Positions 1-57,830 of a stretch of 64,000 nt of DNA are shown here, one piece after another. Origin of the DNA: Clostridia bacterium (lineage in GTDB: Bacteria > Bacillota > Clostridia > RGIG6154). Below the pieces are notes generated by a model. That model had not been told where the DNA came from. It searched no databases and was given only the letters and a program-made list of their open reading frames with translations. Both the position numbers and the translations under genes were made by a program. Numbering within the stretch: the stretch's first letter is position 1; each line of letters opens with the position of its first letter. Location: contig JAFQRW010000022.1 in the NCBI GenBank assembly GCA_017409875.1, positions 8,673 through 72,672 of the forward strand, written 5' to 3'.

Positions 1-79
1 CCTGCACTTTGGTCGCATTTCCCTTGCCAATCTTCGGCATCGCCTTCGTGCCGTTTAAATACTGGTCATACTCTTCCAT
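1..79 (-). CDS. Partial phage gene immediately downstream of the terminase large subunit (possibly portal; the N-terminal start is uncertain)
   Basis: Open minus-strand frame continuing past the window edge (MEEYDQYLNGTKAMPKIGKG...); position after terminase-L. Confidence 0.3.
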   Translation of the reverse strand, partial: MEEYDQYLNGTKAMPKIGKGNATKVQ

Positions 80-152
80 TTTTGAAAGCCTCACATCATA
101 CTTGCTCTTTGCTTCCGAAAACTTATCCTGCCAGTATTTTAAATTCTTTGTT

Positions 153-1520
153 TTATTCAAACGGGTTTCCCCTCCTTGCAATAAGTAATTTTTTGCCCTC
201 TTCATCTGCGTTTTCATAATCTTCCCAATAATCATCTGTCCACTTCACCGCCTTTTTCTTAACGGGACTTTCAGCAGGACTTATGTACTGTAAACAGAAA
301 TACCTTAGTGCATCAGGAAGATGCGTTATTTCATGCGGTTCCGTCATACAGTCCGTAGGTCTCTTTTCGTCCCTCTGAAGTGCAGGCAAACACTCTATAA
401 GCCCTGTGCAGTTTGAAAATATCTTCAGCCTGCTCTCGCCGTTTTTTACTGTTAAAAGTTCTTTAATTGCAACCCAGCCAGCTTCTCGGTTTCTGCTGCC
501 CTTTAATAAACCAAGACCGTTTTCCCTAAAAATGTCAGCCTTCGCCTTTGCAGTTTCTTGGCTTCTTGCCCACAAATCATCAGGAGCAACGGTATATATA
601 ACCTCTTCACCTTTTGGTGTAAGCTTTAATATATCTTCACTTCCAACGCTTATAACCTTGTCGCTTTCAGCATACTCTCTGTAAACGTAATAATCGCCAC
701 GCTCATCAATAGCAATCCAAAGGCACGCTAAGCAGTCGAGACCATAGTCAATCGTCCGATACTTCTTCCAATGTTTTGGAATTTCAAAAGGCTCTATAAC
801 GTGAATATTTCTGTCAAATTCAGAAAAATATTGCCCTGCCATCATATCCCAGTTGCCATCACGCCACGCCTGTCTTAGTCCTTCCGATAAGTTGTTAAGC
901 ATATTCACATATCCAGGGTCATTTTCAAGCAACGCCTTGTTATCAAACACAGTTGCCGGTATAAATTCATAATCATCCGGATTTTCCGAGCCTCTGTATT
1001 TACGGCTTATAAAAAGCCTTTTTACCCATTCATGTCCGACTCCGCCGGGATTGCAGGTCAAATACATTCTTTTAGGAAATTTGTTAGCACCACGAAGACA
1101 TGCAGTCAGAGTTTCAAACTGATATTCCGTAAACTGCGTAGCCTCATCCATAAAAATAACATCATATTCTTGTCCTTGATACTGAAGCACATCCGCTTCT
1201 GATGCACAATATCCAAGCTCTAAAATACTGCCATTAGGGAAAAGGAAAAGCTTTTCCTGTCTTCTGTAATTTGCTATCCCTTTAAGCAACGGCTCTAACA
1301 TTCTTACATGGTTACGTTCCAAATCTTTATAAGTTCTTCTCAAAAGCAATATTTTAATTCCCTGATAGAAAAGTGCCAACAAGGGAGCCTTTCTGTCAAT
1401 AGCCCAGCTCTTTCCGCCACCACGCGCTCCACCATAAGCAACAAACCTTTTCCTTGCTTTAAAAAATACCGCCTGTTTAGAGTTCATGGTGCTTATGTCA
1501 AGAACTGCCTCACCCTGCAT
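153..1520 (-). CDS. Phage terminase large subunit
   Basis: 455 aa; Walker A GGARGGGKSW; nuclease-domain acidic residues; typical terminase-L architecture. Confidence 0.85.
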   Translation of the reverse strand: MQGEAVLDISTMNSKQAVFFKARKRFVAYGGARGGGKSWAIDRKAPLLALFYQGIKILLLRRTYKDLERNHVRMLEPLLKGIANYRRQEKLFLFPNGSILELGYCASEADVLQYQGQEYDVIFMDEATQFTEYQFETLTACLRGANKFPKRMYLTCNPGGVGHEWVKRLFISRKYRGSENPDDYEFIPATVFDNKALLENDPGYVNMLNNLSEGLRQAWRDGNWDMMAGQYFSEFDRNIHVIEPFEIPKHWKKYRTIDYGLDCLACLWIAIDERGDYYVYREYAESDKVISVGSEDILKLTPKGEEVIYTVAPDDLWARSQETAKAKADIFRENGLGLLKGSRNREAGWVAIKELLTVKNGESRLKIFSNCTGLIECLPALQRDEKRPTDCMTEPHEITHLPDALRYFCLQYISPAESPVKKKAVKWTDDYWEDYENADEEGKKLLIARRGNPFE

Positions 1521-1905
1521 ATTCTTCTATACCTTCAGGAAGTTTTACATTAACCGTTACATTATTGGTTGACTTACCTTCTGCCAAAGCCTTTTTATCA
1601 TACATCGTTCCAATCATCATCACTAAATGATTAACCGCTATTTCCCTTTCACCGTCATCTAACATTTCAAAAAGTCTCTTAAACGCCTTATTTATTGCCT
1701 TTGAAGCATTTAAGCTGAAATCTTTTCTTTTTTCATCACAAAGTTTCACAAATTCCGGCTCGTCTCTATGCTCTTTTACAATTTTTTCAACAGTACTTTC
1801 AGCCACCCCTAAAACTCTTGCCGTTTCAGAATAATTATCCGTCTCCGCCCATGAGGTCATAACCTTGTAAATCACCTCAGGCGGTGTTTTTTTACCTCTT
1901 GGCAT
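1510..1905 (-). CDS. Phage terminase small subunit (HTH-containing)
   Basis: 131 aa; N-terminal HTH (ARVLGVAESTVEKIV); directly upstream of and overlapping terminase-L. Confidence 0.6.
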   Translation of the reverse strand: MPRGKKTPPEVIYKVMTSWAETDNYSETARVLGVAESTVEKIVKEHRDEPEFVKLCDEKRKDFSLNASKAINKAFKRLFEMLDDGEREIAVNHLVMMIGTMYDKKALAEGKSTNNVTVNVKLPEGIEEYAG

Positions 1906-2045
1906 AACCTCACCGCTTCCGTTTTTTTATATTTCTTCTTCATTCTGCGCCTACTCTATCACATTTACCCCCTCAGTTACCGGACAATTTTTAAATTTTA
2001 AAAAAATTTTCGACATAAAAAAACAGAGGCTTAACCCCTCTGCTT

Positions 2046-2321
2046 TTAAACCACATTGTCCCATGTTTCATAAAACTTTTTTTGCATTACCCAAAGCCTT
2101 TTTTCACTAAGATTATATTCAAGTGATACACTAAGCATTGTTTTATGAGGTTTCGTTATCAACTCAAATAAAGCTTTGTAATCTTCTTTCCCCACTTCTG
2201 TACAAAGATTTAATATTTTTTTCTGTACATCTTCTGGTGCATCTTTAAAATTCATGCAGGTGAAATAAATAAGCCCCTGCTTATTGTACGGAAGCTTTAT
2301 CCCCCGCTTCTTTTTAAACAA
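2046..2321 (-). CDS. Hypothetical phage protein
   Basis: 91-aa ORF in a co-oriented phage gene string. Confidence 0.45.
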   Translation of the reverse strand: MFKKKRGIKLPYNKQGLIYFTCMNFKDAPEDVQKKILNLCTEVGKEDYKALFELITKPHKTMLSVSLEYNLSEKRLWVMQKKFYETWDNVV

Positions 2322-2323
2322 TC

Positions 2324-2815
2324 CTACCCCTCCTCAAACAGCGGACAGTCTTTAACTATGTAACTGTCGGTATATTGTTCTCCTTGTTGCTTCAAGTATG
2401 TCTTTTTAGCCTCCCAACCTTCAACAGGAACTAAATGGCTCGCCCAAGGGCAGTGCCCGTCTTTACCGCAAGCCCACTTACAATGCCAGCAAAGTGTACC
2501 GTTTGCACTAAGGCTTGGCTTACTCTTCCTTTGGCTCTGTTCCTGCTTTGCTGTCCAGGAACATTTACTTGAGCAGCACTTTTTGTTTCTGCTTTTCTTA
2601 AACTTTTTACCGCACATAGCACACGCCGTAACTTCTGCTGTTTCCAAGCTCTCTTTTATCTCGCCATATACTTTTTTCATGTATAGTTTATGAGAAGCTT
2701 CAGACCTTCCAACCGCCCTGCACAATTCCGAGCAATATGCAGCCCTGTGATTGGTCGCAATAAACTCTTTACCGCAAACCTTGCAGACCTTGTTGTATTC
2801 AGCCAACTTTTTCAC
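2324..2815 (-). CDS. Cys-rich zinc-finger phage protein
   Basis: 163 aa with multiple CxxC pairs (CKVCGKEF, CSELC, CAMCGKKF, CWHCKWACGKDGHC). Confidence 0.5.
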   Translation of the reverse strand: MKKLAEYNKVCKVCGKEFIATNHRAAYCSELCRAVGRSEASHKLYMKKVYGEIKESLETAEVTACAMCGKKFKKSRNKKCCSSKCSWTAKQEQSQRKSKPSLSANGTLCWHCKWACGKDGHCPWASHLVPVEGWEAKKTYLKQQGEQYTDSYIVKDCPLFEEG

Positions 2816-3146
2816 CTCTTAATGCCGCTTCCGTGGTTTTGTTTTCTATAACCGCCGCCCAGAGCAAAAGCAAATAATTAATGTGGTCCCCGATTTTCTC
2901 ATCCCAAAGCTCAATCGAAACATCCTCGCCCCTGTTTTCCGCTTTGATTAAATCATAAACTGATACAGTGTGCTTTGCCATCATACCGCCAAGTGCCTTA
3001 ATAGGACTTTCCTGTTGCAAAACCGCAGCAACCTTAAAATTATGTAATCGGTCAGATGTTGCATACTCTGATGCCTTAACCCCCAAAACCTCTTTGCACT
3101 TTCCAATTCTTTGTTCAAGTGCCGCTTCAAATTCTTTACTGTTCAT
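2799..3146 (-). CDS. Hypothetical phage protein
   Basis: 115-aa ORF; overlaps its neighbours by a few codons, as is typical of phage operons. Confidence 0.45.
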   Translation of the reverse strand: MNSKEFEAALEQRIGKCKEVLGVKASEYATSDRLHNFKVAAVLQQESPIKALGGMMAKHTVSVYDLIKAENRGEDVSIELWDEKIGDHINYLLLLWAAVIENKTTEAALRGEKVG

Positions 3147-3432
3147 TGTCTTTTACCTCGCTTTCAAGCCATTGTTTTATGCAATTAATGCACTTGTTGT
3201 TTTCTAAATCGCAATTATGCTCGGGGTTTGTAGCCGTACAGATTTTATCTAAAACACCACCCGAGCAGTCAAACTTGTCCATCATCTCTGCCATTTCATC
3301 AATGCTCATATTCCTTATTCGTTCATAGTTTGTAAGTGGAGCATCTGTTTGCTCAGGACATTTAACAGTGCTTACACAAATACCATTTTCATAAAATCCA
3401 CACTCAACTTTTGCTTTGCTCTTACATTTCAT
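3136..3432 (-). CDS. Cys-rich hypothetical phage protein
   Basis: 98 aa, 10 Cys. Confidence 0.4.
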   Translation of the reverse strand: MKCKSKAKVECGFYENGICVSTVKCPEQTDAPLTNYERIRNMSIDEMAEMMDKFDCSGGVLDKICTATNPEHNCDLENNKCINCIKQWLESEVKDNEQ

Positions 3433-3724
3433 CCTCGCTTACCTCTCTTTCTTTTGGTGTGCGGGTGTTCCATTTATCAATCATTTCTTGAAGTATAGAT
3501 TGCATTTCACCAAAGCCAATAATATTCCCACAACCAAGTTGTGCATCTACAAAATACAAAATCATTTCGGCAGGACACTCATCACAATAAATTCTAAAAT
3601 TTTTTTCTTCATACGATATTTCTGCACCTATACTTTTACTTCCACAAAACGGACATTCACGAAATTCAGCCATTATGTATCTCTCCTTGTTCCACTTCCT
3701 CAAAGGTAGCTTTTTGAATACCAA
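3422..3724 (-). CDS. Lar-family restriction-alleviation-like protein
   Basis: 100 aa; CPFCGSKS...YCDECPAEM zinc-ribbon, characteristic of Lar-type proteins. Confidence 0.45.
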   Translation of the reverse strand: MVFKKLPLRKWNKERYIMAEFRECPFCGSKSIGAEISYEEKNFRIYCDECPAEMILYFVDAQLGCGNIIGFGEMQSILQEMIDKWNTRTPKEREVSEDEM

Positions 3725-3896
3725 GATAATTGTTGTCCACCAATTTTAGTTTAGAAATTGCTTCACTTCTGTTCTTTGCATATACAACACCAGTTCTTGT
3801 TTTGTTTGGATTTAAAACGCCTGTATGGTATCGTTCATAATAATATTCAATAGTGAATTTATACATTATGTATCTCTCCTTTCTCCGTAACTGCAA
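3666..3896 (-). CDS. Hypothetical phage protein
   Basis: 76-aa ORF. Confidence 0.35.
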   Translation of the reverse strand: MQLRRKERYIMYKFTIEYYYERYHTGVLNPNKTRTGVVYAKNRSEAISKLKLVDNNYLGIQKATFEEVEQGEIHNG

Positions 3897-4123
3897 AATT
3901 GTGTAGTCATAAGTCTGTCAGAAAAAAGTACAAATGGATGACCACATTGCATACGACCTCCTATATACCACTTGCATTTTTCACATCTAACCACTTCCAC
4001 AAAGTCAGCTTTGTTTTTGAAATACCCACAAGGTGAGTTTTCCAAAACTCTATCATCACCATTGTTGCGAACGATTCTACACACTTCATAACTAACACAA
4101 TCCTTACAAGTCATTTTTATCAC
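3866..4123 (-). CDS. Cys-rich hypothetical phage protein
   Basis: 85 aa with CxxC...CxxC. Confidence 0.4.
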   Translation of the reverse strand: MIKMTCKDCVSYEVCRIVRNNGDDRVLENSPCGYFKNKADFVEVVRCEKCKWYIGGRMQCGHPFVLFSDRLMTTQFCSYGERRDT

Positions 4124-4377
4124 CTCAATTCGAAATCAATTTCATATTGTAACCGCCTAATTTTTTCTTCGTGCTTCTTTATTTGTTGTTCAAGTTTGGC
4201 TTTGCGGTTTTCTTTTTCCCATTGTCTGTCAAATTCAATCTTATATGTGGTGTGCTTTCTTTTGATATATGTGCCTGTGCATCCATCACTCTTAACAAGG
4301 TCATTTCCTCTATTGCAAATCCACCAACCCAAACGAATCAAAGTAAAACCAAGCCAGCAAGCTACACGCTTAATCAT
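4120..4377 (-). CDS. Hypothetical phage protein
   Basis: 85 aa; N-terminal TM-like segment followed by a basic coiled region. Confidence 0.4.
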   Translation of the reverse strand: MIKRVACWLGFTLIRLGWWICNRGNDLVKSDGCTGTYIKRKHTTYKIEFDRQWEKENRKAKLEQQIKKHEEKIRRLQYEIDFELR

Positions 4378-4652
4378 TCCTTATCACCTCGCATCTTAGC
4401 ACCGCAATGAGGGCAATATGTGTACCTCGATGGTGCAACAGCATTGCACAAACTACAATGTGGCGCACCTGTACTCATAACAGATGATTTCCACTCTCCG
4501 TGCTTCACTTTCTCAACATCTGCGGTGGGTTGTTTGTTTATAATTATTGTGGCTTCGGTTAAATCTCTTTCTTTTGTCCACATTCCTTTTTGTTTCAAAT
4601 CGGCATACAATTTATCCGCATCAATATACCTTGCCATTATCCCACTCCTCAT
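4374..4652 (-). CDS. Zinc-ribbon phage protein
   Basis: 92 aa; CSLCN...CPHCG. Confidence 0.4.
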   Translation of the reverse strand: MRSGIMARYIDADKLYADLKQKGMWTKERDLTEATIIINKQPTADVEKVKHGEWKSSVMSTGAPHCSLCNAVAPSRYTYCPHCGAKMRGDKE

Positions 4653-4872
4653 TTTTTAATCTTGTTCCTAAATAAAAATCCCAATACTTTCTCCCACAAT
4701 GAGGGCATAGGTCATCATATCTTTCGTGTCCGTTAGCGTGCGTAACGCAAATTATACAACTATCCTCTGCTTTATCTTGATAAATCGCACCACATCTGTC
4801 ACACTTCTTTACATCAGCCATCACTCCGCACCGCCCTTCTCGGTTGGGTGGGTGAATACTGTCTTTGCACAA
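4621..4872 (-). CDS. Zinc-ribbon phage protein
   Basis: 83 aa; CDRCG...CPHCG. Confidence 0.4.
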   Translation of the reverse strand: MCKDSIHPPNREGRCGVMADVKKCDRCGAIYQDKAEDSCIICVTHANGHERYDDLCPHCGRKYWDFYLGTRLKNEEWDNGKVY

Positions 4873-17607: not shown

Positions 17608-17620
17608 GTATCTAACAATT

Positions 17621-17765
17621 AAACAGACGGGAGCTTGTGTTACAGGCTGAGAGGAAGGTAAGACCTTCGACCGATAACCTGATTTGGATAATGCCAACGT
17701 AGGGATGCCTGAATATAGCATATTTGCGAAAGTTATCAAAATCGATAATTTTCGCTTTTTTATTG
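17621..17765 (+). promoter_or_regulatory. TPP (THI-box) riboswitch with intrinsic terminator
   Basis: GGGAGC...CTGAGAGG...AACCTGATTTGGATAATGCCAACGTAGGGA; terminator GCGAAAG...CTTTCGC followed by T7. Confidence 0.85.
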
Positions 17766-22130: not shown

Positions 22131-22298
22131 AATAAAAATCCTTTCTTTTTTTAATAAAAAAGAGCAAACCAGTTTTTCAACTGAGTTTGCCCAGACGGTC
22201 GGCTGACTATATTTTACACTCCACCGCGGTAATCCGCGAAATCCGTCAGTTGTGTAAAACTACAATTAAATTTTACACTATTTTGTACTTTTTGTCAA
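22131..22298 (-). promoter_or_regulatory. Promoter (TTGACA-17-TAAAAT) plus structured leader with intrinsic terminator (candidate riboswitch/attenuator)
   Basis: Leader contains the CGCGGATTACCGCG hairpin, alternative pairings CTGACGG / GTCAGCCGACCGTC, CCGTCTGGGCA, and a terminator ending in T6 just before the RBS. Confidence 0.4.
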
Positions 22299-33057: not shown

Positions 33058-33131
33058 TGGAGCGGAAGACGAGATTCGAACTCGCGACGTTCACCTTGGC
33101 AAGGTGACGCTCTACCACTGAGCCACTCCCG
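33058..33131 (-). tRNA. tRNA-Gly (GCC)
   Basis: GCGGGAGTGGCTCAGTGGTAGAGCGTCACCTTGCCAAGGTGAACGTCGCGAGTTCGAATCTCGTCTTCCGCTCCA. Confidence 0.85.
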
Positions 33132-33220
33132 CATGTTGTCTTGAACAAGAAATATAATACCATATTTTTAAGTATTTGTAAAGGGTTTTTTGAAAAAAAA
33201 CACAATTTTTTCATTTTTAA

Positions 33221-50445: not shown

Positions 50446-52056
50446 TTATTTTGATTTCCTTGCGTATTTATCACACAAGTCATTTATCTGATCTGTAAAT
50501 TTAGCTAATTCCTTATTTGTCAGGTTACGACTAAGCTCTGCAACAGTTTTGAGTCTCTGGCAAGCTGCCATAAGCCTGTCAAATACAAGATTTGCTCTCC
50601 GCCTGCCTTCTGATACCTTAGTCAGTTTTACAATTCTACCTCTTGCGGTACATTCGCCTGTTGTAAGATCATATTCATCACCGCTGTATGGTGCTGTTGC
50701 TTTGAATTTAAGCTTGTTATATATCGTCTGTGAAAATGCATCACAAACCAAGTCATCGCCGTGATTTACAAACACCTTCTTTGGTGGCTTTTCCATACTT
50801 CCAAGCCATCCGAGAAGCATATCCTTATCTGCATGACCGCTTATACCGACTATGGATTCAATTCTTGCATTAACCTGAATGTCTTCTCCAAATAACGAAA
50901 CGTGCTTTGCTCCGTTTATAAGCTTTCTTCCGAATGTACCTTCTGCCTGATAACCTACAAAAAGTATGGTACTGTTTTCTCTCCACAGGTTATGCTTCAA
51001 GTGATGTCTGATACGACCTGCTTCACACATACCGGATGCAGATATGATTACCTTTGGTATTAAATCGAAGTTTATAGCTTTTGATTCTTCAGGGGTAACA
51101 CTCAATCTTAATCCGGGGAATGAAATAGGATTGATGCCCTGTTTTACAAGAGCAAGTGTTTCTTCGTCGTAATATCCCATCAGATTATCCTGATATATCT
51201 TTGTGGCTTCAACTGCAAGAGGTGAATCCACATACACTATAAAATTTTCATGACCTTTTATAAGTCCCTGCTCTTTAATTGTTCTAAATAGGTATAATAG
51301 CTCCTGTGTTCTTCCAATTGCAAAGGATGGTATAACAAGATTTCCTTCTTTTGAAAAGGTTTCTTGCATTATTTTTGTAAGCTGCGCAATGTAGTCCGGT
51401 CTTTCTCCATGAACCCTGTCACCATAGGTCGATTCAATTACTACATAATCAGCATACGGTGGATTTTGAGGATTTCTGATAAGAGGTCTGTCTATGTTTC
51501 CTAAGTCTCCTGAAAAAAGAACAGTTCTTTCCTCGCCATTTTCCTTTACTGTAATGTGGATGCTTGATGATCCAAGTAAATGCCCTGCATCGCAGAAATT
51601 TATCGTTATACCTTCAAATATTTCAATCGGTTTGTTGTATCCGTGTCCTTCAAATAATTTCAGGGACTCCAACGCATCTTCAACAGTATACACAGGCACA
51701 TACTGCTGATAGCCTGAACGCTCTGCTTTTCTATTCTGCCATTCCGCTTCCTGTTCCTGAATGTGAGCAGAATCCTGTAACATTATATTACAAAGTCTAT
51801 GTGTTGCTTCCGTGCAGTATACGGGACCTGAGTAACCTTTTGCAACCATTGCCGGAATCATTCCTGAATGGTCTATATGTGCATGAGTAAGGCATATCGC
51901 ATCTATTTTTGACGGAGCAATAGGTAACTCACAGTTTTCATATGTATCTCCGCCTTGCTCCATACCACAGTCAATAAGTATATGCTTTCCGCAAGCTTCA
52001 AGCAATGTGCAAGAGCCTGTAACCTCATGAGCTGCTCCTATAAATACTAATTTCAT
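50446..52056 (-). CDS. MBL-fold beta-CASP hydrolase (RNase J-like)
   Basis: HAHIDHSG; the ORF track shows a GTG start two codons upstream, ATG MKLVF is preferred. Confidence 0.75.
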   Translation of the reverse strand: MKLVFIGAAHEVTGSCTLLEACGKHILIDCGMEQGGDTYENCELPIAPSKIDAICLTHAHIDHSGMIPAMVAKGYSGPVYCTEATHRLCNIMLQDSAHIQEQEAEWQNRKAERSGYQQYVPVYTVEDALESLKLFEGHGYNKPIEIFEGITINFCDAGHLLGSSSIHITVKENGEERTVLFSGDLGNIDRPLIRNPQNPPYADYVVIESTYGDRVHGERPDYIAQLTKIMQETFSKEGNLVIPSFAIGRTQELLYLFRTIKEQGLIKGHENFIVYVDSPLAVEATKIYQDNLMGYYDEETLALVKQGINPISFPGLRLSVTPEESKAINFDLIPKVIISASGMCEAGRIRHHLKHNLWRENSTILFVGYQAEGTFGRKLINGAKHVSLFGEDIQVNARIESIVGISGHADKDMLLGWLGSMEKPPKKVFVNHGDDLVCDAFSQTIYNKLKFKATAPYSGDEYDLTTGECTARGRIVKLTKVSEGRRRANLVFDRLMAACQRLKTVAELSRNLTNKELAKFTDQINDLCDKYARKSK

Positions 52057-52423
52057 ATTCACTTACTCCTTTCTTAATATACTTATTAATTTTATCTCCT
52101 TGAATCCGTTTTGAAAATACTTGAAACACTCTCTTTATTACTCGTGTCAAGTCATGAGAAAAATTTTTTGTTTATACCAAAGGCTTCACCTTGAGGATAG
52201 TCTCGCCGTAGGCGGTGGTGAGGTGCAGATTGCGTAGCAATCGTTATGTTTCCACCTCATCTGAGTTGCTTCTAAACCCACCAGGCTTAAGGAGTTTTAT
52301 TTTATAAACCTCAGTATGTGTAAATTATATACTAATCTGGAAAAATATACAAGTCCAATTAATTTTTTTGTAACACGGCATCTGTTTTAACATATTATGA
52401 TATTGAAAAGGAGGGAGCTAAAT

Positions 52424-52552
52424 GTCATTATTCGGTGGTTTTGACCAGGATACAATTTTATGGTTTATCATTCTTTTCTTATTGCTTTTCTGGTGTGGAA
52501 AAGGATGCGACAACGACTGCTCACGCGGTTGCTAATTAAATTTGGGAGGTAA
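52424..52552 (+). CDS. Small hydrophobic peptide, YjcZ-like N-terminus, apparently frameshifted
   Basis: AAAGGAGGG RBS. As read, the frame gives MSLFGGFDQDTILWFIILFLLLFWCG then RMRQRLL.... The +1 frame continues GCDNDCSRGC* instead. Confidence 0.35.
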
Positions 52553-52555
52553 AAA

Positions 52556-52699
52556 ATGTCTGATTTATCATGCTGCAACGGTTACAACAATAACGGAGTT
52601 GACTCTTGGGTTTGGATTATCATTGCGATAATTGTGATTATCTGGCTCTGCGGAGGCAATAATAACAACTCAAACATATTTGGCAACAGCTGTTGCTAA
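52556..52699 (+). CDS. YjcZ-like small sporulation-type peptide (47 aa)
   Basis: GGGAGG RBS; MSDLSCCNGYNNNGVDSWVWIIIAIIVIIWLCGGNNNNSNIFGNSCC. Confidence 0.5.
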   Translation: MSDLSCCNGYNNNGVDSWVWIIIAIIVIIWLCGGNNNNSNIFGNSCC

Positions 52700-52712: not shown

Positions 52713-52746
52713 CTCGGGGCAAAGAAATCTTTGCCCCGTTTTTATT
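52713..52746 (+). terminator. Intrinsic terminator
   Basis: GGGGCAAAGAAATCTTTGCCCC followed by T5. Confidence 0.75.
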
Positions 52747-52885
52747 GTTATAATTGTACAAAATAAAACATTTTTTTGTGCAAAATGACGAAAAAAATAT
52801 AAAATATATTAAAGGAATGTTATAAAGGTATATAGAAATTAAAAGTTATATTGCACAAGAGTGTAATTATAAAAAAACAAAGGAG

Positions 52886-54970
52886 ATGATTTTTTTGAAA
52901 GCGTACGACAAGCAAGATATCAGAAACGTATGCGTCTTAGGACATGGAGGTGTGGGTAAGACTTCTTTAACAGAGGCAATGCTCTATTTAGGTCAGGGAA
53001 GCGACCGTTTAGGCAAAGTAGCAGATGGGAACACTTCATCTGACTATGATGTTGAGGAAGTCAAGAGAAAAATATCAATTTATACCACAGTTCAGCCTTT
53101 GGAGTGGAAAAACAAAAAAATCAATATTTTAGACACCCCGGGATTCTTTGATTTTGAAGGTGAAGTTTTAGAGGCAGCAAGAGTATCAGATGCTGCAATT
53201 ATCGTTGCAACTGCAAAAACAGGTGTTCAAGTTGGTACAGAGCTTGCATGGAAAATTGCAAACAAGAGAGATATTCCCAAGATTATATTTATCAGTAAAA
53301 TGGAAGAAGAACATGCTGATTACAATAAAGTTTTAGATGGACTTAAAAATTCCTTTGGAAGAACCATAGCACCTTTTTACGTTCCTATGTTTGACGGTGA
53401 AAAATTCTGCGGCTATGTTAACGTTATAAAAATGGAAGCAAGAAAATTTGAAGGCGACAAGATTATTGACATCCCTGTTCCTGAAAATCTTCTTGAAACT
53501 GTTGCTCCTGCAAGACAGATGATTATTGAAGCTGTTGCAGAAACAAGTGAAGAGCTTATGAATAAATATTTCGATGGTGAAGAATTTACCAACGAAGAAA
53601 TCCAGAAGGCCATCAAACAAGGTCTTAAAGAAAACACAATAACTCCTGTACTTTGCGGCTCTGCATTTACTGCAGCAAGTATCAGAAAGCTTTTAGACGC
53701 AATTATTGAATATTTTCCATCCCCTGATGAGGCTGAGGTTGAATATGCCGCAACGGTTGACACAAGAGATGCTATTGAAGTTCCCTGCGATGAAAATGCC
53801 CCCCTTTCTGCAATTGTATTTAAAACAATTGCGGACCCGTTTGTTGGCAAGCTTTCGTTTGTTAAGGTTTGCTCAGGTGTGTTAAAAGCTGACTCAACAG
53901 TATTCAACCCCGACAGACAGATTGCTGAAAAAATTGGTAAGATTTATTATATGCGTGGTAAAAAGCAAATTGAAACAAGTGCCATTACTGCAGGTGATAT
54001 CGGGGCTATTCCAAAGCTCACCCAAACAAAAACAGGTGATACTTTATGTTCACAGTCATATCAGGTTCTTTTAGATAAAATTGACTTCCCTGTTCCTCAG
54101 CTTACACTTGCAATTCTTCCTAAAGAAAAAGGCGACGAAGAAAAAATCAGCCAAGGCTTATCAAAGCTCAAAGAAGAAGATATGACCTTAAAAGTTACTA
54201 CAAATAAAGAAACCAAACAGACTTTAATCAGCGGTATGGGTGACTCACATCTTGACATTATTGTGAATAAACTTAAAGATAAGTTCAAGGTTGCGGTTGA
54301 CCTTAAAGAACCCAAAGTTGCATACCGTGAGGCTATTAAAAAGCGTGTCGAAGTAGAAGGCAAACACAAAAAACAATCAGGCGGACACGGTCAGTATGGT
54401 CACGTTAAAATTGCTTTTGAACCTTGCGAAAGTTCAGAACTCATTTTTGAAGAAAAAATCTTTGGCGGAAGCGTTCCTAAAAACTACTTCCCTGCTGTTG
54501 AAAAAGGTCTTATTGAATCCTGTGCACACGGTGTTATAGCAGGTTGCCCTGTTGTTAACTTAAAGGCAACACTGTTAGATGGTTCGTACCATCCGGTTGA
54601 CTCATCTGAAATGGCATTTAAATTGGCTGCAAATCTTGCATTCAAAAACGGTCTTGCTCAGGCAAACCCGGTATTACTTGAGCCCGTGAACAAAATCGAG
54701 GTTTATATTCCATCTTCATATATGGGCGATGTTATCGGTGATATCAACAAACGTCGCGGCAGAGTCCTTGGTATGAATCCTCAGGGCGATGGAATCGAGC
54801 AGGTAGTTGCAGAAGTCCCTGCAGCAGAGCTTACGAATTATGCCATTGACCTCCGTTCAATGACACAGGCAAGAGGCAAATTCACTCAAGAATTTGTTCG
54901 CTATGAAGAAGCTCCTCCACAGGTTACTCAAAAAGTTACAGAAGAGTATAAAAAATCTTCTCAGGAATAA
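52886..54970 (+). CDS. EF-G paralogue (translational GTPase family) with deviant G motifs
   Basis: G1 GHGGVGKTS; G3 DTPGFFDF (His to Phe); G4 SKME; domains II-V present; the true start is probably TTG at 52898. Confidence 0.8.
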   Translation: MIFLKAYDKQDIRNVCVLGHGGVGKTSLTEAMLYLGQGSDRLGKVADGNTSSDYDVEEVKRKISIYTTVQPLEWKNKKINILDTPGFFDFEGEVLEAARVSDAAIIVATAKTGVQVGTELAWKIANKRDIPKIIFISKMEEEHADYNKVLDGLKNSFGRTIAPFYVPMFDGEKFCGYVNVIKMEARKFEGDKIIDIPVPENLLETVAPARQMIIEAVAETSEELMNKYFDGEEFTNEEIQKAIKQGLKENTITPVLCGSAFTAASIRKLLDAIIEYFPSPDEAEVEYAATVDTRDAIEVPCDENAPLSAIVFKTIADPFVGKLSFVKVCSGVLKADSTVFNPDRQIAEKIGKIYYMRGKKQIETSAITAGDIGAIPKLTQTKTGDTLCSQSYQVLLDKIDFPVPQLTLAILPKEKGDEEKISQGLSKLKEEDMTLKVTTNKETKQTLISGMGDSHLDIIVNKLKDKFKVAVDLKEPKVAYREAIKKRVEVEGKHKKQSGGHGQYGHVKIAFEPCESSELIFEEKIFGGSVPKNYFPAVEKGLIESCAHGVIAGCPVVNLKATLLDGSYHPVDSSEMAFKLAANLAFKNGLAQANPVLLEPVNKIEVYIPSSYMGDVIGDINKRRGRVLGMNPQGDGIEQVVAEVPAAELTNYAIDLRSMTQARGKFTQEFVRYEEAPPQVTQKVTEEYKKSSQE

Positions 54971-55039
54971 TACATAAAAGCATTTGGCAAAACTCCCCGA
55001 TTACATAATCGGGGAGTTTCAAATTTATGCAGTAAATAT

Positions 55040-55837
55040 TTAAATTGAGTCAAGATTTTTAAATGTATATCCCATTTCTTCCCATTTTGTTAAAAGCTCA
55101 TCTAAAATTTCGGCGTTTGTTTTGGAGGTTGAATGAAGTAGAACTATCGCACCAGGGTGAATCCTTGTTAGTAGCTTTGAAAATGCTTCTTCTTTGGTTG
55201 GCTGCTTATTTTCGTACCAGTCTACATAAGCAAGCGACCAGAAAAACGTTTTATACCCCATTGAATTTGCAAGCTTTAAATTTTCTTCATTAAATTTTCC
55301 CTGTGGAGGACGATACACTTTTAAAAGCTCTTTTCCCGTTACTGCCTTATAATCATTTTCAAGTGCAGCAATTTCTTTGGCAAACTCTTCTGCCGTAGCT
55401 ATCTTTGACATGTCGGGATGGTTTTTTGTGTGGTTTCCTACAATATGACCTTCATCTACCATTCTTTTTACTAAATCGGGATTCTTTTCGATAAAATTTC
55501 CAACCAGAAAAAATGTTGATTTCACATTATGCTTCTTAAGTGCGTCTAAAATCGGAGTTGTATTTCCGTTGTCATATCCTGCATCAAAGGTTAAATATAT
55601 AACCTTTTCATCTGTTGGCACGCAGTAATACGCATTATGTTCTTTTAAAAACTCAGCTGTTGCATTGCCTTCAGGCTGAGCCCCATTTTCGCGGTAAGAA
55701 AGTCCCCAATCATTTTTTGATGTTGTTAAAATATTAGAATTCAAATCAGGATTAAATGCGGTAAAGCACGCAACTAAGGCAAAGGAAAGTGCAAACGCCG
55801 TAATTTTTAATTGTTTTTTAGTAAATACAAATATCAT
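55040..55837 (-). CDS. Polysaccharide deacetylase (PdaA-like)
   Basis: NodB TFDAGYDNG; HTKNHPDM. Confidence 0.8.
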   Translation of the reverse strand: MIFVFTKKQLKITAFALSFALVACFTAFNPDLNSNILTTSKNDWGLSYRENGAQPEGNATAEFLKEHNAYYCVPTDEKVIYLTFDAGYDNGNTTPILDALKKHNVKSTFFLVGNFIEKNPDLVKRMVDEGHIVGNHTKNHPDMSKIATAEEFAKEIAALENDYKAVTGKELLKVYRPPQGKFNEENLKLANSMGYKTFFWSLAYVDWYENKQPTKEEAFSKLLTRIHPGAIVLLHSTSKTNAEILDELLTKWEEMGYTFKNLDSI

Positions 55838-55937: not shown

Positions 55938-57830
55938 ATGGTTCTTTTAAATACATCAAAAATTTCAAAAAGCTACGGTGAAACCGTTATCCTTAACGAT
56001 ATTTCGTTCAATGTTTCAGACAACGATAAAATCGGAATACTTGGTGTTAACGGTGCCGGCAAATCTACCCTTTTTAAAATTTTAACAGAAGAAATTTCAC
56101 CTGACAGTGGCGAAATTTACAAAGCAAAGCAATTAAAGATTGCTTGTATGCAGCAGCATATGGAAGCGTTTTCAGAAAACACTGCATACAATGAAGTCTT
56201 ATCTGTTTTTGATAATTTAGTACAGGCAGAAAAACAAATAGAGCTGCTTCAAAAAGAGCTTGAAACAAGTTCAAATGAACAACTCATTAACAGATTTCAC
56301 ACTATAAATCAAAAATTTATAGACGATGGCGGGCTTACTTACAAATCCAGAATAAATTCCACTCTGACAGGACTTGGAATTACAGACGAACAAAAGAGCA
56401 TGCCTCTTTCAAAGCTGAGCGGTGGTCAGCGCACAAGAGTTATGCTTGCAAAAATACTTCTGGAAAATGCGGACATTTTACTTTTAGACGAGCCTACCAA
56501 CCATCTGGACATAGAAGCTGTTACCTGGCTTGAAGATTTTTTAAGCTCATATAAAGGCTCAATAATGGTTGTAACTCACGACAGATATTTTTTAGACAAA
56601 GTTACAAACAAGATTTTTGAGATAGAAAATCACAAGTTAAAAGAGTATAACGGAAACTACAGCCATTACCTTACTAAAAAGCAGGCTGACAGAGAAGCAG
56701 AGGAAAAAGATTACTCTTTAAAAGAAAAGGAAATTAGAAGGTTAGAAGGCATTATAAAGCAACAAAAGCAGTGGAACAGAGAAAAAAGTATTAAAACTGC
56801 TGAAAGCAAACAAAAGGTAATAGAAAGAATAGAAAAAACAATGATAAAGCCTGACAAAACATTAGATTCTGTTTCATTCAGGCTCCCTGCCGCTGAAGAA
56901 TGTGCTAAAGATGTTCTTTCTTGCATCAATCTTTCTAAATCCTTTGACAAACCGGTTTTTTCTGATATAAATATCGAAATAAAAAATGGTGAAAAAGTAT
57001 TTTTAATGGGTGCTAACGGCAGCGGTAAAACCACATTGTTTAAGATAATCTTAGGTTTAATGCGCCAAAACAGTGGAAAAATAGTATTAGGTTCAAGGGT
57101 AAAACCTGCTTATTATGACCAGATGCAGTCAGACCTTGACCCAACAAAAACTATTTTTGACGATGTACACGATTTTTTACCCAAGCTTGATAACACAACA
57201 ATTCGCTCAGCTTTGGCATTGTTTTTATTTAGAGGTGAAGATGTTTTTAAAGAAATTTCCACTTTAAGCGGCGGTGAACGTGCAAGAGTTTCTTTGGTTA
57301 AGCTTATGCTTTCAAAGGCAAACTTTTTGCTCCTGGATGAGCCGACCAATCACTTGGACATTGCCTCAAAAGAGGCTTTAGAAAGTGCACTAAAAGATTA
57401 TAGCGGAACACTTCTTATAATATCTCATGACAGATATTTTATAAACAAGCTTGCGGATAAAATTTACGAGCTTACTCCAAACGGTGAAAAACTATACGAC
57501 GGTGGTTATGATTACTATGTATTAAAGCACCAGAGTGCGCCTGTTCAATCAGCAATACAAAAACCAAAAACAAATGATTATAAGATTTTAAAAGAGTTAG
57601 AATCACAAAAAAGGAAGCTAAAAACCAAAATTTCAAAACTTGAAGATGCCATAGCAGAGTTAGAAAATGAAATAAGTATATTAAATGAAGAACTGCTAAG
57701 CCCTCAGCTTGCAAGCGACTATGAAACATTAACACAAAAAACCAACCTTTTAAATCAAAAGCAGCTTGAATTGCAAGACAAAATAGATGATTGGGAAATT
57801 TCACTGCAAAACCTTGAAGAATTTGAATAA
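55938..57830 (+). CDS. ABC-F family ATPase
   Basis: Two NBDs; C-terminal coiled coil. Confidence 0.85.
   Translation: MVLLNTSKISKSYGETVILNDISFNVSDNDKIGILGVNGAGKSTLFKILTEEISPDSGEIYKAKQLKIACMQQHMEAFSENTAYNEVLSVFDNLVQAEKQIELLQKELETSSNEQLINRFHTINQKFIDDGGLTYKSRINSTLTGLGITDEQKSMPLSKLSGGQRTRVMLAKILLENADILLLDEPTNHLDIEAVTWLEDFLSSYKGSIMVVTHDRYFLDKVTNKIFEIENHKLKEYNGNYSHYLTKKQADREAEEKDYSLKEKEIRRLEGIIKQQKQWNREKSIKTAESKQKVIERIEKTMIKPDKTLDSVSFRLPAAEECAKDVLSCINLSKSFDKPVFSDINIEIKNGEKVFLMGANGSGKTTLFKIILGLMRQNSGKIVLGSRVKPAYYDQMQSDLDPTKTIFDDVHDFLPKLDNTTIRSALALFLFRGEDVFKEISTLSGGERARVSLVKLMLSKANFLLLDEPTNHLDIASKEALESALKDYSGTLLIISHDRYFINKLADKIYELTPNGEKLYDGGYDYYVLKHQSAPVQSAIQKPKTNDYKILKELESQKRKLKTKISKLEDAIAELENEISILNEELLSPQLASDYETLTQKTNLLNQKQLELQDKIDDWEISLQNLEEFE

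Follow-up and report, generated by a model that had tools for sequence, protein, structure and literature searches.

The gene at 52895-54970 on the forward strand of the 64,000-nucleotide stretch of Clostridia DNA analysed here (the window) encodes a paralogue of elongation factor G (EF-G) that belongs to the Clostridia subgroup of EFG II (EF-G2), a subfamily that has already been described and is poorly understood. The protein, which is probably 691 residues long, lacks the catalytic histidine of switch II, and a survey of its relatives shows that loss of this residue is a property of the whole EFG II family. The P-loop aspartate and the gate isoleucine are missing throughout as well, while the residues that contact nucleotide and magnesium are kept and the gene is maintained by strong purifying selection.

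Duplicated bacterial EF-Gs have been divided into EFG I, spdEFG1, spdEFG2 and EFG II (Margus, Remm & Tenson, 2011; PMC3150367), the last being named 'EFGII' by Atkinson (2015; PMC4342817). All six type-I signature positions, at which the residue conserved in EFG II is not that of EFG I (Margus, 2011, Table 1), have the EFG II residue in the window protein (A19G, T28L, T64S, I316T, A360G and G379K in the numbering of Thermus thermophilus EF-G1, position 379 being Lys or Arg in EFG II), as do six of the seven type-II positions (D224, V258, L272, K498, K499, E543 and G633). The exception is position 224, where the window protein has Ser and not the Asp of the 2011 description, and which is conserved at only 88% within EFG II itself (PMC3150367). 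EFG II has lost the translational GTPase G2 consensus RGITI, for which the Clostridia sub-subgroup has the variant RxxSI (PMC3150367); the RKISI of the window protein fits this variant, and Ser64 is found in 121 of 121 close homologues, the window protein included. A neighbour-joining tree (36 taxa, 685 columns, without an outgroup) separated canonical EF-G (T. thermophilus EF-G1 and the loci L079, L084 and L085) from the window family and Thermus EF-G-2 (PDB code 1WDT; the sequence used is 100% identical to the PDB chain) in 200 of 200 bootstrap replicates. The same three loci served as controls for the canonical EFG I consensus AHxDxGKT, RGITI, DTPGH and NKxD, which they match and from which the window protein departs in all four motifs, in keeping with the divergent G domain of EFG II. 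The gene also lies outside the str operon (rpsL-rpsG-fusA-tuf), with no rpsL, rpsG or tuf among its neighbours. According to Margus (2011; PMC3150367), EFG II never occurs without another EF-G in its genome, most often EFG I. The window protein is presumably a second, non-housekeeping EF-G, with the canonical fusA elsewhere in the genome. The original prediction, made from the sequence of this locus, had likewise recognized an EF-G paralogue distinct from the housekeeping factor.

Searches with NCBIfam models gave the best match to NF009381, an 'elongation factor G' subfamily (931 bits), and the canonical EF-G equivalog TIGR00484 was also passed (696.9 bits against a cut-off of 659.4). TIGR00484 is without power to separate clostridial EFG II from canonical EF-G and, because its cut-off is cleared, annotation pipelines label proteins of the window type plain 'elongation factor G'. 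Three further models were missed: NF009377 ('elongation factor G-like protein EF-G2'; 609 bits against a curated cut-off of 890), which evidently represents a narrower, more diverged EF-G2 lineage; NF058620 (Bacteroides EF-G2; 571.8 bits against 1000, with the match split into two stretches); and NF012153 (tet_protect; 317 bits against 775).

Pfam identified GTP_EFTU, EF-G_D2/GTP_EFTU_D2, EFG_III, EFG_IV and EFG_C in the order found in EF-G, with E-values of 1e-17 to 1e-42. A phmmer comparison with T. thermophilus EF-G aligned query residues 6-684 with chain residues 6-687 (E=3e-176, 591 bits, 42-43% identity). Because this alignment runs from end to end with only three small gaps, none of them near any G motif, the register of the motifs is unambiguous. 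The features of the coding region, mapped residue by residue on T. thermophilus EF-G, are as follows.

52895-54970, forward strand: EFG II/EF-G2-type elongation factor G paralogue (open reading frame, Pfam, NCBIfam NF009381, start conserved in homologues).
52940-52966, forward strand: G1/P-loop GHGGVGKTS (canonical AHIDAGKTT); GKT kept, gate Ile21 replaced by Gly and P-loop Asp22 by Gly.
53066-53080, forward strand: G2/switch I RKISI (canonical RGITI), the clostridial EFG II variant RxxSI (PMC3150367); Mg-binding Thr replaced by Ser.
53132-53155, forward strand: G3/switch II DTPGFFDF (canonical DTPGHVDF); catalytic His87 replaced by Phe, codon 53144-53146.
53294-53305, forward strand: G4 SKME (canonical NKMD), a variant of NKxD.
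53657-53665, forward strand: G5 GSA (GSAF against canonical GSAL).
54362-54403, forward strand: domain IV loop I, KHKKQSGGHGQYGH, an EF-G-type tip with the EFG II-specific Lys-Lys.
54578-54613, forward strand: domain IV loop II, DGSYHPVDSSEM, with His569 (His573 of T. thermophilus), invariant in the family.

The five-domain fold and the domain IV loops are thus held in common with canonical EF-G, loop I having the full GGHGQYGH motif and loop II reading SYHPVDSSE, whereas the canonical AHIDAGKTT, RGITI, DTPGH and NKMD are all altered. The three motifs singled out by the original prediction, G1 GHGGVGKTS, G3 DTPGFFDF and G4 SKME, were confirmed by this mapping. An alignment artefact masking a histidine was ruled out: the alignment with T. 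thermophilus EF-G is free of gaps around switch II and no realignment restores the residue. The further statement that the protein lacks NKxD goes too far, as SKME is a mild, conservative variant that retains the Lys together with an acidic residue, and interchange of Asp and Glu in G4 recurs among close relatives of the window protein.

Two samples were used to follow these positions through the family, whose full-length members number in the thousands: the 120 closest homologues (58-93% identity), and a wider set of 80 loci from named species or metagenome-assembled genomes (MAGs) among the genome-collection matches listed (at most 56% identity). From these 80 loci, together with 1WDT, the window protein and two metagenome loci, 81 EFG II-like proteins were taken, spanning Lachnospiraceae, Oscillospiraceae, Ruminococcus, Syntrophomonadaceae, C. 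difficile (orthologue in locus L080), Desulfovibrio, Acidobacteriota and Syntrophales MAGs. Histidine was found at position 87 in none of the 121 close sequences (window protein included), which have Tyr in 93 cases and Phe in 28, and in none of the 81 EFG II-like proteins (Tyr 37, Phe 21, Leu 14, Asp 5, Ser 2, Thr 1 and Ile 1). All surveyed orthologues share the replacement of His, and Phe87 is the hallmark of the window protein's own clade, present in every homologue of at least 64% identity. At the P-loop position 22 no protein of the 81 has Asp (Gly 71, Ser 4, Asn 3, Ala 2, Lys 1), and at the gate position 21 none has Ile (Gly 55, Ser 16, Ala 4, Asn 4, Gln 2). By contrast, Gly24, Lys25, Thr26, Asp83 and Gly86, as well as Gln503 and His569 of domain IV, are invariant in the same proteins, the Mg ligand at position 64 is Ser or Thr in all of them, and the acidic G' residues Glu212, Glu216, Glu219 and Glu229 are invariant in our alignment A1.

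The G4 motif is loose across the family, occurring as NKxD, TKxD, SKxE, NRxD, TDMD and NQMD, with Lys in 43 of the 81 proteins. In one EFG II sub-lineage the Lys has given way to an acidic or neutral residue (VTDMD, VSDMD, VTNMD, VTEMD, VTGMD); the loci concerned (L013, L024, L030, L031, L034, L039, L041, L045-L047, L049, L051, L059 and L062) are mostly from Lachnospiraceae MAGs or isolates. Margus (2011; PMC3150367) gave G3 as DxPG only and called the NKxD of G4 conserved; the paper is silent on the missing catalytic His, P-loop Asp and gate Ile. The statement on NKxD does not hold in the present sampling.

Comparison with the orthologue in the related contig L001 (91% amino-acid identity) gave a ratio of nonsynonymous to synonymous substitution rates (dN/dS) of 0.053 over the full length, with 0.049 when the G domain was taken by itself, and the gene is an intact, functional member of its family under strong purifying selection. 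An AlphaFold2 (AF2) model of the protein (predicted local distance difference test, pLDDT, 86; predicted template-modelling score, pTM, 0.81) shows five domains with switch I alone disordered. In Foldseek searches this model resembled ribosome-bound EF-G (query-normalized template-modelling score, TM, of 0.87-0.92), ribosome-bound Bacteroides thetaiotaomicron EF-G2 (PDB code 8DMF; TM 0.87) and Thermus EF-G-2 (1WDT; TM 0.80).

We consider it most likely, with moderate confidence, that the protein serves as an auxiliary factor, either a translocase or one that binds the ribosome, and would use GTP binding as a switch, its hydrolysis being slow, independent of the histidine or absent. The nucleotide and Mg ligands are kept under strong purifying selection, and the G' acidic patch and the EF-G-type domain IV loops are kept too, which argues for a factor of the translocase type, and the uniform absence of His87, Asp22 and Ile21 argues that canonical hydrolysis triggered by the sarcin-ricin loop (SRL) has been lost. 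Asp22 is a monovalent-cation ligand in translational GTPases. On such a mechanism Mg-GTP would still be bound, through the GKT of the P-loop, the switch-I Ser and DxxG; the acidic patch of G', which is conserved in EFG II (PMC3150367), would allow docking on the L7/L12 stalk; and the loops of domain IV would reach the decoding centre. The replacements His87 to Phe, Asp22 to Gly and Ile21 to Gly would remove the SRL-triggered reaction, and GTP binding might act as a conformational switch, with hydrolysis that may be weak, a probable translocase activity and use under some particular physiological condition, in a manner akin to that of the starvation-induced EF-G2 of Bacteroides. The latter protein from B. 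thetaiotaomicron (fusA2, BT2167; PDB codes 7UVP and 8DMF), an EFG II-type paralogue of 718 residues, is the best functional precedent: as cited, it translocates without GTP hydrolysis, is induced by carbon starvation and is required for gut colonization.

Several points weigh against this proposal. Thermus EF-G-2, which is reported to be active as a GTPase, has the same losses (GHAGSGKT, DAPGY, TKLD), so that the residue pattern is no proof of a hydrolysis defect, and the EF-G2 of Mycobacterium smegmatis appears not to be a translocase at all. A lineage-specific insertion of about 26 residues is reportedly needed for the lack of GTPase activity and for ribosome release in B. thetaiotaomicron EF-G2; the window protein is without any such insertion and is collinear with T. 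thermophilus EF-G. The literature searched yielded no experimental work on clostridial EFG II, fusA2 or EF-G2, and no second EF-G is encoded within the 64-kb window.

A possible, though doubtful, alternative is a GTPase-competent back-up translocase of the Thermus EF-G-2 kind, with His-independent hydrolysis and a role largely redundant with that of EF-G1. Thermus EF-G-2 (1WDT and 2DY1) shares the clade and the five domains of the window protein and resembles it in its motifs, GHAGSGKTT, DAPGYGDF and TKLD; it differs in having Tyr in place of Phe and in length (665 residues against 691), with 36% identity over the Foldseek structural alignment and 467.5 bits in phmmer. Despite its GHxGxGKT, DxPGY and TKLD, intrinsic and ribosome-dependent GTPase, translocation and poly(Phe) activity have been reported for it (Connell, 2007, as cited), and strong constraint acts on the P-loop, the Mg site and the acidic patch of G' in the window family. 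Against such an activity, position 87 is so varied (Phe, Leu, Asp, Ser, Thr, Ile or Tyr) that no common side chain could stand in for the histidine, the P-loop Asp and gate Ile have gone from 81 of 81 proteins, and the substitution H88Y in M. smegmatis EF-G1 nearly abolishes its GTPase (bioRxiv 10.64898/2026.05.25.727771).

The second M. smegmatis factor suggests a different and rather unlikely role, that of a stress-specific regulator without translocase or recycling activity which would occupy the factor site of stationary-phase 70S or 50S particles. M. smegmatis EF-G2 (PDB codes 9K0Z and 9K10) resembles the window protein in having an aromatic residue for the catalytic His (His88 to Tyr98, in a G3 reading DTPGYADF) and a Thr or Ser for the Asn of G4 (NKMD to TKLD); it shows minimal ribosome-dependent GTPase activity, no recycling and no translocation activity, binds stationary-phase ribosomes and has a stress-associated role (bioRxiv 10.64898/2026.05.25.727771). 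Atkinson (2015; PMC4342817) questioned whether EFG II acts mainly in translocation, which points the same way. However, the mycobacterial protein is far more diverged, with a P-loop GPSGGGKTT, a G2 of the qqRSV type and a domain I shifted off the SRL, whereas the window protein scores 591 bits against T. thermophilus EF-G and 438 against 9K0Z. The family-invariant Gln503 and His569 and the complete GGHGQYGH of loop I argue instead for a function in the decoding centre, and the AF2 model resembles EF-G in the translocation state. The original prediction of a GTPase that is impaired or differently regulated is accordingly upheld as to the absence of the catalytic His, and goes too far in reading impairment from that residue alone, since Thermus EF-G-2 (Tyr) is reported active and the mycobacterial and Bacteroides EF-G2 proteins are not.

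The SKME motif of the window protein's clade raises a further idea. An NxxE motif, which SKME resembles, makes YchF/OLA1 prefer ATP. Combined with the losses of His87, Asp22 and Ile21, the exchange of the guanine-reading Asp of NKMD for Glu might mark a factor uncoupled from both guanine specificity and hydrolysis; this is improbable, but if true the protein would be a translocase able to run on any nucleotide at hand, or without one, when energy is depleted, as in stationary phase or during spore germination.

We judge it very improbable that the protein is a resistance factor of the ribosomal-protection type (Tet(M)/Tet(O)-like, or a fusidic-acid-insensitive EF-G). Common membership of the EF-G superfamily and a 'ribosomal protection-like' ABC-F protein encoded two genes downstream would suit this role, yet the score against tet_protect lies far below its cut-off, the domain IV loops are of the EF-G and not of the Tet type, and the ABC-F gene is transcribed separately and keeps its adjacency only in close relatives. 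Tet proteins, moreover, are not known to have lost DTPGH. A decaying pseudogene or annotation artefact, for which only the degenerate motifs speak, has next to no likelihood and was ruled out, given the intact frame of 691-694 codons, the dN/dS of 0.05, the thousands of full-length homologues, the conserved ribosome-binding site (RBS) and start, and the confident structure prediction.

The open reading frame (ORF) of the EFG II gene runs uninterrupted from 52886 to 54970, as originally described, and would comprise 694 codons if counted from the ATG at 52886. The true start is probably the TTG at 52895, giving 691 residues and not 694, because the Shine-Dalgarno sequence AAAGGAG touches the ATG without a spacer but sits 9 nucleotides 5' of the TTG, and because the homologues begin MKAY...; the in-frame TTG is kept in the related contigs L001 and L004. 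The following signals surround the gene.

52715-52738, forward strand: terminator-like hairpin found by the terminator scan, closing the upstream tiny-ORF unit and parting it from the EFG II gene; stem conserved in L001.
52776-52805, forward strand: candidate sigma-A-type promoter, TTGTGC, 16 nucleotides, TATAAA (alternatively 18 nucleotides and TAAAAT).
52879-52885, forward strand: Shine-Dalgarno sequence AAAGGAG, identical in L001.
54991-55018, no strand assigned: hairpin AACTCCCCGATT-ACAT-AATCGGGGAGTT, read from the sequence, between the convergent EFG II and pdaA-like genes.

The candidate promoter falls below the threshold of the promoter scan used; its block is shared by the window and L001, the rest of the spacer having diverged. 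The hairpin at 54991-55018 fails the T-run criterion of the terminator scan and was not called by it; judged by its sequence and position it probably terminates transcription in both directions, and the EFG II gene would then be monocistronic. With terminator-like hairpins on both sides, the gene is predicted to form its own transcription unit. Rfam gave no match to a leader RNA or riboswitch in the upstream region at gathering thresholds, and matches at E up to 1 were at chance level only.

The immediate neighbours of the gene are the following.

50446-52062, reverse strand: MBL/beta-CASP/RMMBL ribonuclease, 537 residues; best NCBIfam match type VII CRISPR Cas14, 401 bits (cut-off 800).
52422-52535 and 52556-52699, forward strand: two tiny ORFs of 37 and 47 residues, each with a good RBS.
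55040-55837, reverse strand: pdaA-like polysaccharide deacetylase, convergent with the EFG II gene; 286.5 bits against the PdaA model (cut-off 298).
55938-57830, forward strand: ABC-F ATPase, 630 residues; NCBIfam NF000355 'ribosomal protection-like ABC-F family protein', 461 bits (cut-off 380).

These neighbours had been described as sporulation-flavoured, a description that was not borne out: it comes down to the one convergent pdaA-like deacetylase, whose model is that of a spore-cortex delta-lactam de-N-acetylase and which is the sole family-level sporulation match nearby, and to the unclassified tiny ORFs. The order EFG II, deacetylase, ABC-F is kept in L001-L004 (at least 74% identity) and is missing from all 80 loci of greater distance; the upstream neighbour of the EFG II gene differs in every relative. 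Because the synteny with the pdaA-like gene is restricted to close relatives, the association with sporulation is weak and local. No convincing sigma-F, -G, -E or -K promoter was seen by eye upstream of the EFG II gene, the only conserved block shared with L001 being the sigma-A-like one. The family is also present in non-spore-formers, such as Faecalibacterium, Ruminococcus, and Desulfovibrio and Acidobacteriota MAGs.

With the ABC-F protein, another factor associated with translation is encoded in the vicinity, two genes away. The beta-CASP gene, which also matches archaeal aCPSF1 (293 bits) and whose best NCBIfam matches are not RNase J, is divergent from the EFG II unit and non-syntenic in EFG II relatives. 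An operon comprising the EFG II gene and either of these was ruled out, since they differ from it in strand or belong to other units, and since the gene upstream varies among relatives. The two tiny ORFs encode peptides with a hydrophobic core and Cys-rich ends (MSLFGGFDQDTILWFIILFLLLFWCGKGCDNDCSRGC; MSDLSCCNGYNNNG...WIIIAIIVIIWLCGG...GNSCC), have conserved counterparts in L001-L003 (95% and 74% amino-acid identity, with in-frame indels), and matched no Pfam or NCBIfam family; a role as small peptides of the membrane or the spore is possible. Between these ORFs and the beta-CASP gene, within an AT-rich spacer, a GC-richer stretch (52186-52300) shows by eye a nested complementarity, GGTGAGGTG...CCACCTCATC, around GATTGC-GTA-GCAATC, and gave no Rfam match even at E up to 1. 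In L004, the relative with 74% identity, a prophage-like or mobile block (positions 1-4700) with HTH_3 repressors, a Peptidase_S24 repressor and a large serine recombinase lies 5-10 kb upstream of the EFG II gene. Elsewhere in the window, Rfam identified three features at gathering thresholds.

17619-17723, forward strand: TPP riboswitch.
22182-22263, reverse strand: ZMP/ZTP riboswitch.
33061-33132, reverse strand: tRNA gene.

The exchanges of His for Tyr and of NKMD for TKLD have already been described for M. smegmatis EF-G2 and are present in 1WDT, and there is little new in the present case. The survey adds the picture of a family in which the catalytic centre (His87, Asp22 and Ile21) has been dismantled in 81 of 81 proteins with the nucleotide and Mg ligands and Gln503 and His569 kept, and in which the published biochemistry of three members disagrees, the Thermus protein being active and those from Mycobacterium and Bacteroides inactive. 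It also holds a lesson for annotation, as a paralogue without the catalytic histidine is labelled simply 'elongation factor G'. The clostridial subgroup is the least diverged from EF-G and would offer a clean system in which to ask whether translocation needs GTP hydrolysis, and what purpose a second EF-G serves in Firmicutes of the gut and the soil, C. difficile among them.

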